This document shows positions 2,755 to 25,065 of a DNA stretch of 32,000 bases, one piece after another (position 1 is the first letter of the stretch; every line of letters starts with the position of its first letter). This DNA comes from Candidatus Heimdallarchaeota archaeon. Its GTDB lineage: Archaea > Asgardarchaeota > Heimdallarchaeia > JABLTI01. A model generated the notes under the pieces. That model ran no database searches. It had not been told where the DNA came from and saw nothing but the letters and a program-made list of their open reading frames with translations. The position numbers were made by a program, and so were the translations under genes. The DNA lies in assembly GCA_030614005.1 (NCBI GenBank), contig JAUWKS010000032.1, positions 4,025-36,024 on the forward strand, read 5' to 3'.

Positions 2755-3732
2755 TTGACAATTCAGGATGATAAGAATAATACTGCTGGTTTTAAGGAAT
2801 TATCATTCAAATATGATGGTCCAAAATGGGATGCTCATGTTCACCTCTACAAACTAGATGATGTTCGTGAATTTGTTAAGTATTCTAAAGGGTACAACGT
2901 CCAAAAGATGACTGCTATTGTAAGAGACGATTGGAAAACTTATGAAAAAGAATTTCCCGAAACATTCGCATTCGCTCGTTTCATTATGTCTCAGGATCTT
3001 TTTACAGGTGATATTCAAGCAGTTGTCAATGATGTGCAAGAAATGCATGACTCTGGCTATCCTATAGCAAAATTCTGGTATGCCCCTAGATGGAGAAAAT
3101 ATGTAGAAGAGAAGTATCAAGCTAATATTGAAGGATTTAGAATTGATAATCCAGATTTAGACCCAATCTTTTCCAAAATCGAAGATTTAGGACTAACGTT
3201 ACTTTTTCATATCTCTGATCCAGACATTTTTTATGATACTAAATACCAACCAACCAATTATTACGGGACAAAAAAACAACACCTGGAAGAATTTGAGAAT
3301 ATTATCTCGAGACACCCAAATATGAACGTCATTGGTGCACACATGTCCGGACAACCGGAACACTTGGATGATTTAGGCAAGTGGTTTGAAAAATACCCTA
3401 ACTTTTATGTTGATACTTCATCTGCAAAGTGGATGGTCCGTGAATTTTCCTATGATCCAGATGGAACAGCTGAATTTTTTGTCAAGTATCAAGACAGAAT
3501 AATGTTCGGTACAGACATTGTAACAGGAAGAACTGATCGCGAACCAATTCCAGGATACTATTACAAGCGCTATCTATCTCTTTTAGCATTATTGGAAACA
3601 GATGTGAGAGATTTACCATTGCCCGTTGAAGATCCTGAAAATAATAATAAAACGGTTATTAATGGTTTAGACCTTCCAATGAATGTTTTGAGAAAAATCT
3701 ACTGGGAAAATGCCAAACAACTTTTTGGTTAA
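2755..3732 (+). CDS. Amidohydrolase_2 family protein
   Basis: DAHVH, FH..DP, GAH, YVDTS and MFGTD metal-binding TIM-barrel motifs; TTG start after GAGG. Confidence 0.85.
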   Translation: MTIQDDKNNTAGFKELSFKYDGPKWDAHVHLYKLDDVREFVKYSKGYNVQKMTAIVRDDWKTYEKEFPETFAFARFIMSQDLFTGDIQAVVNDVQEMHDSGYPIAKFWYAPRWRKYVEEKYQANIEGFRIDNPDLDPIFSKIEDLGLTLLFHISDPDIFYDTKYQPTNYYGTKKQHLEEFENIISRHPNMNVIGAHMSGQPEHLDDLGKWFEKYPNFYVDTSSAKWMVREFSYDPDGTAEFFVKYQDRIMFGTDIVTGRTDREPIPGYYYKRYLSLLALLETDVRDLPLPVEDPENNNKTVINGLDLPMNVLRKIYWENAKQLFG

Positions 3733-21723: not shown

Positions 21724-21763
21724 GTAGAAGGCCTCACTTCTTCAAGTGAAATCTAGATCTCCA
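21724..21763 (+). other. 5' arm of pre-23S processing stem
   Basis: GTAGAA-GGCCTC-CTTCTTC-AAG..TCTAGA-TCTCCAT is complementary to 25033-25078. Confidence 0.75.
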
Positions 21764-23786
21764 TAGTAGGTTCCGACACGCAAACGCCATCTGGGGGATG
21801 GATTGGCTCGGACGCCGATGAAGGACGTGGCTAGCTGCGATAAGCGCGGGGTAGCTGCAGGCAGGCATAGAACCCGTGATTTCCTAATGGGAACTCCTAA
21901 TGCGAACCAATAAGTCGCATTACTCCGTAAGGAGGGGGAACGCACCGGACGGAAACATCCAAGTAGGTGCAGGAAAAGAAATCAACTGAGATGCCCAGAA
22001 GTAACGGCGAGTGAAATGGGCATAGGCCAAACTGAATCCCCATACGCAAGTATTGGGAAATGTAGTGTTACGGACTCTCTATTGAGCTCTGCGATGCGAA
22101 GCTGAATATTCTGGAAAGCTTAACTAAAGAGGGTGATAGTCCCGTAAGCGTAAACATCCCTGAGTGTGAGAGTATCCTGAATAGCGGGGGTTGGAAATCC
22201 CTCGTGAATGGGGCACAACGAGCTCCAAGCCTAAATACGTTCCGAGACCGATAGCGCAATAGTAACGTGAGTGAAAGCTGAAAAGTAACCCGGAAGGGTA
22301 GTGAAAAGTGCCTGAAACCAGATGGTTATAGACGTTTGTGGCCCGAAAGGTAAGATCCTCCATGAAGAGAAAGCTGGTGACAGCTAGATCGTTTGGAGGG
22401 GACCGGGGTCACAAGTTCCGTCTAGAAACACGGACCAGGGAGGTCATACTTGTGGCAAGCTTAAGTGATGTCAAAAACACGCAAGCGTAGCGAAAGCGAC
22501 ATGCCCGCAGTTTACAAGGGGCGCCGTCTGAAAGGGCGGGAAGTCACAGGTGTGAGACCCGAAACCGGACGATCTACCCCTGAGCAGGCTGAAGCCTAGG
22601 GAAACCTGGGTGGAGGGCCGAGCAAGTATTGACGTGCAATTCATGTTTGTTGACTTGGGGGTAGGGGCAAAAGACCAATCTAGTCCGGTGATAGCTGGTT
22701 CCCAACGAAGTGGACATAGGCCAGCCTGCTCTGAGATGGAGCATTCGGTAGAGCAATGATTGATGGTTACGGGAAGTAAAATTCTCGCCTGTCAGTCAAA
22801 CTACGAACGGATGTTTATCGTAGAAGAGTAGAGTCGGGCGTGCGTGCGTAAGGCACGTGGCCGAAAGGGGAATAACCCAGACTATGGTTAAGGTCCCTAA
22901 ATCTCGATTAAATGCTAAAATTGGAAGGACGTCATTGGACTAAGACAGTAAGGCGGTAGGCTTAGAAACAGCCACCCGCTAAGAAAAACGTAACAGTTTA
23001 CTTACCGAGTCCTTTGGCTCCGAGAATGGACGGGGCTAAATCGAGTACCGATACCTTAGAATACATTGAAAGATGTAATTTGATAGTTGGGCGATCTGGT
23101 TGGGCGGAAGCAGGGCAGTGATGTCCTGTGGACCGATCAGATTTGCAGATCCTGGCGGTAGTAACAGCAAAGAGAGGTGAGAATCCTCTCCGCCGAAAGG
23201 GCAAGGTTTTCACGGCAACGTTCGTCAGCCGTGAGTTAGTCGATCCTAAGGGCGCTCTTATCTGCGGCGCTCGAAAGGGAAACAGGTTTAAATTCCTGTA
23301 CTGCGTGGATACGTCAGAAGCGGCAACGCGAAGATCATTTTCTGACGCGACTGGATAAGCTCTGTAAAGTTATCGCTTTATTTAACTATATAACCCTCAG
23401 AAGTACCGTGACGGTGAGAATGAGGTGAAATTAGGAATAGGCTGCCAATAGTGGCGGCTCGAGCTTTTTCCACTCGCCCATGAAAAGGAAAATGATAAGG
23501 ATTCCACGTAATCGTACCCAGAACTGACACAGGTGTCCCAAGGTGAGAAGCCTAAGGCGTGTTCGATCAACGATGGTGAGGGAAATCGGCAAATTCGCCC
23601 CGTAACTTCGGGATAAGGGATGCCTGTGGGCTTGAAAGGGCTCGCAGGTCGCAGTGACAAGGAAGGAACAACTGTTCAATTCAAACATAGCAAACCGCAA
23701 GGGTGAAAACCTGTGAACGGTTTGTGAATCCTGCTCAATGCTGGTATGTGAAAGCCGGGTCCAACCGGTCCAAGCACCAGTCAATA

Positions 23787-23826
<40 letters not shown>

Positions 23827-24353
23827 TGTCGGATAAGTACCGACGTGCATGAACGGATCAATGATTCCTTCGCTGTCCCCACCGTCGATCGAGTGAACCC
23901 ACTAGCCAGCGAACAGTCTGGCACCAACCAGCGGGAAGAGAAGACCCCGTGGAGTTTTACTGCAGCCTGTGCCTGTTTTACGGGTAGTTATACATAGTGT
24001 AGTCAGGAGCGTCGAACCAAATTCTCAGGGATTTGGGAATGCAACAATGAAACACTGACTTTAACGGCTTGTTTGACTAACTTCTACTTCTGTAGAAGGA
24101 CAAGTATTGGTGGGCAGTTTAGCTGGGGCGGCTGCGCTTGAAAAGGTATCGAGCGTGTCCAAAGGTTAGCTCAGAAGGGACGGAAACCCTTCGTAGAGTA
24201 TAAGAATAAAAGCTAGCTTGACAGGGTTCTTTCCCATAGGGAACTCTGCAACGAAAGTTTGGTCTAGCGATCTGTCGATGGATCTCGTTGATTCACGGCA
24301 GCGGCAGAAAAATTACCCCGGGGGTAACAGAGTCGTCGCAGGCGAGAGCTCAC

Positions 24354-24422
24354 ACTCTCCAGACAAAAAGTTACCTCGATATATAAAGAAAGATCTAGGT
24401 TTACGTTCTGGAGGAGGAGTAT
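24354..24422 (+). other. 69-nt BHB-type intron in 23S helix 89 loop
   Basis: GCTC/GAGT central helix, ACA and ATA bulges; excision gives the consensus GAGCUCAC|AUCGAC. Confidence 0.88.
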
Positions 24423-24510
24423 ATCGACCCTGCGGCTTGCTACCTCGATGTCGGCTCTTCCTCTCCTGGCGCCGCACAAGACGCCAAGGGTAGGGTTGTA
24501 CGCCCATTAA

Positions 24511-24553
<43 letters not shown>

Positions 24554-24604
24554 ATTCTTTCTACTGGTTGTGCTGGGAAATTGAGGGTAGGGCAGGGTCG
24601 GTAC

Positions 24605-24665
24605 ATTGTATGAGATGTACAGATTCAAACTACATGATTAGTTTAGTAATCTCTTATAAGCCAAA
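24605..24665 (+). other. 61-nt BHB-like intron in the sarcin-ricin loop (helix 95)
   Basis: Excision gives GUAC|GAGAGGAC; intron stem TTGTATGAGAT/ATCTCTTATAA; relaxed BHB. Confidence 0.85.
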
Positions 24666-24792
24666 GAGAGGACCCCCCCGTCGGCGCCTCTAGTCTACCG
24701 GTTATCTGACAAGGTAACGCCGGGCAGCCACGCGCCAAGCGATAATAGCTGAAAGCATCTAAGCTAGAAACGCGTCCTGAAACGAATTTCCC

Positions 24793-24923
24793 ATTCTAAC
24801 GAAGTTTCGACAATGATTGACTCTTACAAGCTGTTTAGAGTTGTGTTACAATTATGAAAAATTATTTTTTTAGTTGGTCGTTTCGAGCATGGGAATGGCG
24901 ACATTAACATGTTTTCGTTGGAC
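24793..24923 (+). other. Supersized expansion segment ES39 (helix 98 position)
   Basis: 131 nt between AATTTCCC and GAAGG; basal stem 24795-24804/24913-24922, long stem 24807-24821/24873-24886, GCGA tetraloop hairpin 24894-24905. Confidence 0.8.
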
Positions 24924-25003
24924 GAAGGTTCCGATACAAGATCGGTTTGAAAGGAGTGCGGTGTACGCGTCGAGTCTTCGGGCGAGATGCTCAGCCGGCA
25001 CTT

Positions 25004-25065
25004 ACTTACCACCTAAGCGTGTCATTACCGAAATGGACTTCTAGACCTTAAAGAAGAAGCGAGGG
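25004..25065 (+). repeat. Direct repeat copy 1 (23S 3' end + processing-stem arm; attL-like)
   Basis: 25020-25058 is identical to 29684-29722 (39 bp), with imperfect extension on both sides. Confidence 0.9.

Follow-up and report, generated by a model that had tools for sequence, protein, structure and literature searches.

The 69 nt at positions 24354 to 24422 of the 32,000-nt stretch of DNA analyzed here (the window) are very probably an archaeal BHB intron that is spliced by EndA and RtcB and interrupts the 23S rRNA gene at the apical loop of helix 89. Introns of unrelated sequence occupy the same site in other Asgard genomes, and RNA-type 23S contigs from the closest relatives lack the insert; together, these observations argue for a real intron that is removed from the transcript.

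The insert interrupts a full-length 23S gene that stands alone, as Rfam searches returned no 16S or 5S rRNA in the 32-kb window, and that is the sole match found in its own assembly (3.6 Mb, 90% complete, 126 contigs). A neighboring 800-aa protein is 91% identical to isolate HM7_B34 and has its nearest named relatives in Candidatus Heimdallarchaeota MAGs, which identifies the host as an Asgard archaeon of the Heimdall group. Covariance-model alignment assigned 71 nt to the helix 89 loop, compared to 2 nt in the Rfam archaeal LSU model, between the flanks GAGAGCUCA and UCGACCC. On the E. coli 23S gene, with A2451 as the landmark anchoring the numbering, the insert falls between positions 2477 and 2478. 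A preliminary description of this DNA had placed the insert in helix 89, near position ~2477, and had considered an Asgard host; the two alignments and the relatives of the neighboring protein agree with it on all three counts. The gene, the helix, and the predicted intron map as follows.

21770 to 25028, plus strand: 23S (LSU) rRNA gene, full length (Rfam RF02540, 2542 bits, model positions 1-2987)
24331 to 24441, plus strand: helix 89 as encoded (5′ strand 24331-24347, 3′ strand 24424-24441, predicted intron in the apical loop; cmscan structure line)
24354 to 24422, plus strand: predicted intron, 69 nt, 38% G+C, no ORF

Pairing between the ends of the insert and the surrounding exon yields a GCUC/GAGU central helix, with one G-U pair, flanked by the bulges ACA and AUA. 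The elements of this BHB and of the intron fold are listed below.

24346 to 24347, plus strand: outer helix h, 5′ half (G, A), pairing with U24424 and C24425 as the native closing pairs of the helix 89 loop
24348 to 24351, plus strand: central 4-bp helix H, exon strand GCUC (helix 89 loop nucleotides 2472-2475)
24352 to 24354, plus strand: 5′ bulge ACA, predicted cut C24353/A24354
24355 to 24363, plus strand: inner helix h′, 5′ arm CUC-UCCAGA, pairing with 24407-24416, G24413 bulged
24370 to 24405, plus strand: distal intron hairpin, from the folds
24407 to 24416, plus strand: inner helix h′, 3′ arm UCUGGA-G-GAG
24417 to 24420, plus strand: central helix H, intron strand GAGU
24421 to 24423, plus strand: 3′ bulge AUA, predicted cut U24422/A24423
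24424 to 24425, plus strand: outer helix h, 3′ half (U, C), from the cmscan alignment

The bulges adjoin an exon-exon helix (h) and an intron-intron helix (h′). The latter has 9 bp with one bulged G, and the former is short: after only two canonical pairs (G24346-C24425 and A24347-U24424) it gives way to the 3x3 internal loop native to helix 89. On the 5′ side, the outer helix is followed by the central helix, the bulge, and the inner helix; on the 3′ side, the inner helix comes first, then the central helix, the bulge, and the outer helix. Archaeal pre-tRNA has the same arrangement, so one strand of the central helix comes from the exon. Unconstrained MFE folding of 24335-24440 recovered the central helix and the 3-nt 3′ bulge (z = -3.5; 1 of 200 shuffles equally stable), with a 5′ bulge of 3 or 4 nt, as set by one alternative pair. 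Cutting after the second bulge nucleotide on both strands takes out 24354-24422 (69 nt) and leaves GAGCUCAC/AUCGAC, where the slash marks the junction. The predicted junction, GAGCUCAC/AUCGACC, fits the Rfam consensus and is the sequence of both the intron-less relatives and the RNA-type contigs. The central helix, bulges, intron stem, and inner hairpin are all those drawn in the preliminary description. Its further claims, i.e., an ORF-less intron and an archaeal consensus junction generated by the cut after the second bulge base, likewise held, the latter by virtue of the identical sequence in intron-less relatives.

We surveyed the site in 82 genomes of the class and 399 of the phylum (family labels f1, f2, etc., are anonymous). 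Within the genus, all five genomes containing this part of the gene carry a homologous insert of 68 to 71 nt. These inserts are 76 to 87% identical between species (97% in the near-identical pair G000/G010), whereas the flanking exon stretch is 96 to 100% identical, indicating that the insert evolves much faster than the mature rRNA. The same site is occupied in 16 further Asgard genomes, which belong to families f3, f4, f5, and f6 of the class, with inserts of 46 to 470 nt, and to families f17 and f20 outside it, with inserts of 32 to 96 nt. In family f3, one genome carries a 46-nt insert and two are empty; the nine f4 genomes have inserts of 186 to 470 nt, one of them seen only at its 3′ end; the single f5 genome has a 221-nt insert; the three f6 genomes have inserts of 329 to 339 nt; and none of the 19 f2 genomes carries an insert at 2477/2478. 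Outside the class, the four genomes with inserts (96, 36, 35, and 32 nt) represent two Asgard families, and ∼95 other genomes align straight across the junction. Position 2477/2478 is thereby occupied in at least seven Asgard families, with presence and absence varying inside genera. The preliminary description, which had proposed a survey of Asgard LSU genes for such insertions, was right that the site is real but understated the scale, as many lineages are occupied. Same-site introns of different families had no detectable similarity in sequence, and one shared origin can thus be demonstrated no better than several independent ones.

The BHB motif at 2477/2478 exceeds chance. Among the 21 inserts compared, which are independent or related inserts at one site, the central helix has all four pairs in 20 and the 3-nt bulges are in BHB register in every case. 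At least four contiguous pairs directly past the 5′ bulge occur in 18 of the 21, compared to 2.3% of cross-family mispairings. The two strands of the central helix covary: exon GCUC goes with intron GAGU/C, GUUC with GAAC/U or GGAC/U, and GUCC with GGAU. Single-sequence folds contain the central helix and the 3-nt 3′ bulge in all ten same-site inserts folded. The pairs of the genus introns were read by hand and from such folds. The strict form of the 5′ bulge is present in the window and in G010, and that of congeners G005, G007, and G009 is relaxed to 4 or 5 nt or has a neighboring mismatch, so cleavage in the latter would need a tolerant endonuclease. Empty sites coincide exactly with the predicted splice junction. 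The empty allele of G033 equals the occupied one of G035 minus 46 nt, with identical flanks, and empty alleles of family f20 read GAGUCCCU/AUCGACC and GAGUUCCU/AUCGACC, with relatives carrying inserts of 35 and 32 nt. In family f7, the only LSU fragment of one MAG (G081, L060) reads GGUUUGGCACCUCGAUGUCGG, as bacteria do at the helix 89/90 junction, and is probably a contaminating contig.

We then searched the JGI contig collection with the predicted spliced junction placed inside the genus-specific helix 89 stem. Three contigs of 2.9 to 3.4 kb (L083, L084, and L085), from the samples Ga0316596, Ga0307926, and Ga0307927, carry both the spliced junction and this stem. They contain 23S sequence only and are circularly permuted with respect to the gene, in the order ...24354 / 24423-24604 / 24666-25052 / 21736.... 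They are opened at three different points, and one extends beyond the full circle. Given the circular permutation and the lack of flanking DNA, the contigs are most simply understood as copies of circular 23S RNA rather than of DNA (compare PMC12918454). Their 3′-to-5′ junction, CCUUAA/AUCUAGAUCUCC (CCUUAA/AUCUAGA), is identical to the two window flanks inside the processing stem, which in the window is BHB-like and non-canonical. The junction partners and two further stretches in which the gene exceeds the Rfam model are as follows.

21748 to 21751, plus strand: circular-23S junction, 5′ partner, in the flanking processing stem
25049 to 25052, plus strand: circular-23S junction, 3′ partner
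24605 to 24665, plus strand: second mini-intron, 61 nt, ORF-less, in the sarcin-ricin loop (cmscan: 70 nt, compared to 9 in the model)
24794 to 24921, plus strand: extra ∼128 nt relative to the Rfam model, inserted at model position 2882/2883, near the 23S 3′ end

The contigs skip 24354-24422 and 24605-24665 to the base and read unbroken through GAGCUCAC/AUCGACC. At the sarcin-ricin loop they read GGUAC/GAGAGGACC, with the 61-nt insert precisely missing, and from there they align continuously over 24666-25052. Their identity is 87 to 92% with members of the genus and ∼70% with other families. A maximum-likelihood tree built from the exons nests them in the intron-bearing genus, with L084/L085 as sister to the window (98/99 support) and L083 as sister to G009 (100/100); this tree omits G010, a near-duplicate of the window whose contig breaks off within the region. 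Since the five sampled genes of the clade (5/5) all bear the intron, the simplest reading, on grounds of parsimony, is that the contig RNAs derive from intron-bearing genes of related species and would have been spliced and religated. In an index look-up of 23900-25000, with reads unaligned, 19 RNA runs contain 27 to 58% of the sampled words, and runs with this rRNA include X1-X3, from cold seeps and marine sediments; none of the 19 is listed with the seven intron-overlapping words, a zero that in such an index is no proof of absence. By the same kind of look-up, again with unaligned reads, RNA run X44 contains two of the seven intron-overlapping words. We do not weigh these RNA-run shares as evidence.

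These contigs also bear on whether the insert could be a lineage-specific expansion segment, kept at the helix 89 tip when the 23S rRNA matures. Such a view may draw on the ∼128 extra nucleotides that the same gene retains downstream of helix 89 and on the unusual expansion segments that occur in Asgard LSU rRNAs (PMC7594248). However, the RNA-type contigs keep the segment at 24794-24921, which marks it as a true expansion segment and makes it an internal control for a retained insert, whereas the same genus-nested contigs lack the insert in helix 89. Judged on these contigs of the nearest relatives, 24354-24422 is not retained as an rRNA expansion segment would be. The helix 89 tip is not known to carry an expansion segment. 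Furthermore, the same-site inserts span 32 to 470 nt, are unrelated, and have only the geometry of a BHB cut site in common, and insert presence varies even within genera. Finally, the location of the helix 89 tip, inside the uL16 cleft and adjacent to the catalytic centre (PMC7699173, PMC6326782), speaks against a retained insert. We therefore regard retention as very unlikely.

The machinery for removal as a BHB intron is encoded in the same genome, which contains both a splicing endonuclease and an RNA ligase. A 239-aa ORF specifies a catalytic-type EndA with both Pfam domains (PF01974/PF02778), a second, 193-aa EndA paralogue matches PF01974/PF02778 with an additional Sen15 hit, and a 486-aa ORF encodes RtcB. 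In this assembly (G000), the two EndA subunits map to the 3390-3644 region of contig 82 and the 74694-74954 region of contig 9, and RtcB to contig 59. Two distinct EndA subunits would fit an endonuclease of the heterotetrameric type. This type is present in most Asgard genomes (bioRxiv 10.64898/2026.10.13.758758) and is reported to accept relaxed motifs (PMC5829648).

Excision could in principle proceed without rejoining, leaving a mature 23S rRNA fragmented at helix 89, as after RNase III excision of bacterial intervening sequences. Fragmented and permuted 23S rRNAs do exist, e.g., in Pyrococcus (PMC7758197), and a minor unligated fraction would be compatible with the contigs. Yet the RNA-type contigs are continuous through the exon junction, the genome encodes RtcB, and archaeal BHB cuts are normally followed by ligation (PMC4496867), so that we find permanent fragmentation scarcely probable. 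An assembly artefact or a decaying pseudogene is exceedingly unlikely. The MAG is split into 126 contigs and rRNA genes are often misassembled, but this gene is full length, high scoring, and the only copy found, and five MAGs, each assembled separately, share the insert. In addition, an index look-up (reads unaligned) found intron-overlapping 31-mers in DNA contigs of ∼19 public runs from many studies.

A self-splicing intron of group I or group II, intact or degenerate, might be considered in view of the group I introns known in archaeal LSU genes (PMC6125680) and of the insert with a LAGLIDADG ORF that congener G007 carries at L1923, a classic group I site. Nonetheless, 69 nt is far below any ribozyme core, and covariance models identified neither a group I nor a group II core. 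LSU was the only Rfam family matched in the window, the longer same-site inserts, and related loci, and the BHB with its correctly placed cuts fully accounts for the boundaries. A self-splicing origin is thus vanishingly improbable.

Inspection of the BHB introns for cargo gave negative results. None of the 21 same-site introns examined contains a homing endonuclease gene of the kind found in mobile rRNA introns, and that of the window, with 69 nt, is too short for an ORF. Translation of the 12 same-site inserts of at least 150 nt yielded short frames only (≤100 codons), with no visible LAGLIDADG motif, and no C/D-box pairs were found in the same-site inserts. The best-conserved intron block within the genus is the 3′ half of the distal hairpin (GAUCUAGG..AC). 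Pairing of this block with the downstream peptidyl-transferase strand was considered and rejected, as duplex energies of the 21 introns were no better than those of shuffled sequences (all p > 0.06). What had suggested such pairing is the 9-nt sequence UACCUCGAU, which occurs both at 24372-80, in the distal hairpin, and at 24441-49, in the exon strand after helix 89; the chance expectation for this identity is ∼0.05, and congeners match less well.

Position 2477/2478 is one of several intron sites in the 23S genes of this clade. The 61-nt sarcin-ricin mini-intron, which we take to lie at about E. coli 2658/2659, is a companion substrate of the EndA/RtcB machinery and is missing from congeners G007 and G009. 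G005 (L004:1314-1500) and G009 (L005) carry a 187- to 200-nt insert between A2450 and A2451 (GGGGUA/ACAGAG), with a canonical BHB made up of a GGGG/CCCC central helix and the bulges UAA and AAA; the window, in which this position corresponds to 24326/24327, lacks it. An insert of ∼850 to 880 nt occurs in G007 (L003:~200-1080) and also in G005 (L023), at window position 23806/23807 (E. coli 1923/1924), the classic I-CeuI-type LSU site. This insert, which may be a BHB or a group I intron, encodes a 185-aa LAGLIDADG_1 protein (Pfam E = 4e-19) and gave no Rfam group I match. G033 (L021/L025), another genome of the Heimdall class, has a 320-nt insert in domain V, corresponding to window position 24522/24523. 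Alignments of many f2 genomes break near window positions 24545 and 24585-24589, and ∼15 f20 genomes are longer by ∼30 nt at some point between E. coli 2478 and 2620. Judging from these alignments, the domain V insert, the f2 breaks, and the extra f20 nucleotides probably mark more intron sites.

For the helix 89 intron, we infer cleavage and ligation in the host itself, as well as the fate of the excised RNA, as follows. The intron would be transcribed within pre-23S rRNA, where GAGU, its last four nucleotides before the 3′ bulge, would pair with exon GCUC of the helix 89 loop. Both intron ends would pair to form helix h′, and the native closing pairs of helix 89 would serve as outer helix h, such that two 3-nt bulges would be presented on opposite strands, 4 bp apart. 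EndA, for which two different subunits are encoded, would cut after the second nucleotide of each bulge. RtcB would then join the exons, restoring the 7-nt loop GCUCACA, and would probably also circularize the 69-nt intron. Until the intron is removed, the central helix would tie up loop nucleotides 2472-2475, and the native tip of helix 89 could not form. The uL16 cleft is built from helices 38 and 89, and helix 89 is needed for folding of the peptidyl-transferase centre (PMC7699173, PMC6326782). Maturation of the 50S subunit would therefore have to wait for splicing and, in these organisms, would depend on tRNA splicing enzymes.

Most likely, the intron is a neutral or selfish passenger, residing where the exon sequence happens to support a BHB. 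This reading is favored since the intron varies freely in sequence and many healthy lineages have an empty site. A broader proposal, that ORF-less BHB introns have landed repeatedly in the helix 89 loop across Asgard archaea, implying gain independent of an endonuclease, seems rather unlikely. If true, gain could occur, e.g., by the EndA/RtcB reaction reversed on rRNA and then copied back into DNA, with insertion at sites whose exon sequence can supply half a BHB. In a related and similarly unlikely view, the introns at helix 89, A2450/A2451, and the sarcin-ricin loop might be kept because splicing acts as a late licensing step for the active sites, much as helix 89 is held by factors in eukaryotes up to a late stage of 60S assembly.

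Many unrelated ORF-less introns and clean empty alleles at one defined site make a good natural system for the study of intron gain. The introns of this clade occupy the most conserved functional loops, namely, the helix 89 tip, A2450/A2451 of the catalytic centre, and the sarcin-ricin loop. Such inserts split conserved regions and lengthen the gene, and could affect rRNA annotation, probe and primer design, and alignments. Protein-spliced rRNA introns have so far been described almost only in Thermoproteota and Aigarchaeota, and the present case gains interest from its host lineage, from its position, and from how widely this single site is occupied. Our literature search, which did not extend to the classic catalogues (CRW; Jackson et al. 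2002), turned up neither BHB introns in the rRNA genes of Asgard archaea nor an intron of any kind at LSU 2477/2478; with those catalogues aside, this matches the preliminary description, to which both site and host were unfamiliar.

The closest known systems are the short hairpin-forming and remnant ORF-less BHB introns in rRNA genes of Thermoproteales, Desulfurococcales, and Aigarchaeota (Jay & Inskeep 2015, PMC4496867). Like the helix 89 intron, those of Thermoproteales and Desulfurococcales interrupt a conserved rRNA loop, have a BHB at the exon-intron junctions, are small and lack an ORF, are patchily distributed among relatives, and are presumably removed by EndA and RtcB. The host here is, however, an Asgard archaeon rather than a member of Thermoproteota or Aigarchaeota, and the site is the 23S helix 89 loop at 2477/2478. 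BHB introns that encode LAGLIDADG proteins, for which the 23S intron of Desulfurococcus mobilis encoding I-DmoI is an example, share the splicing motif, the machinery, and the host gene, whereas the homing endonuclease gene is lacking here. They are described in general terms from crenarchaeal 23S rRNA genes (PMC4496867), in agreement with the statement in the preliminary description that BHB rRNA introns are known mainly from Thermoproteota and often carry LAGLIDADG genes. Within the phylum, Asgard tRNA genes are rich in introns, including non-canonical BHB introns (PMC11291895; bioRxiv 10.64898/2026.10.13.758758). These share the two-subunit EndA background, the abundance of ORF-less introns, and repeated gains, but their substrate is tRNA instead of 23S rRNA; the words "rRNA" and "23S" are missing from the text of bioRxiv 10.64898/2026.10.13.758758, and "23S" is missing from PMC11291895, where rRNA means 16S only. 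Archaeal BHB processing stems and circular 23S rRNA (PMC12918454) involve the same enzymes, and the RNA-type contigs show the circular junction at the flanking stem of this very gene. There, however, the whole rRNA is released, whereas here an internal piece would be removed and the rRNA resealed. The helix 89 intron further resembles bacterial 23S intervening sequences, which likewise extend the tip of a 23S helix in the gene and are taken out of the transcript. The bacterial sequences differ in that RNase III cuts them out of a plain stem, in helices 25 and 45, and the rRNA stays unligated and fragmented.
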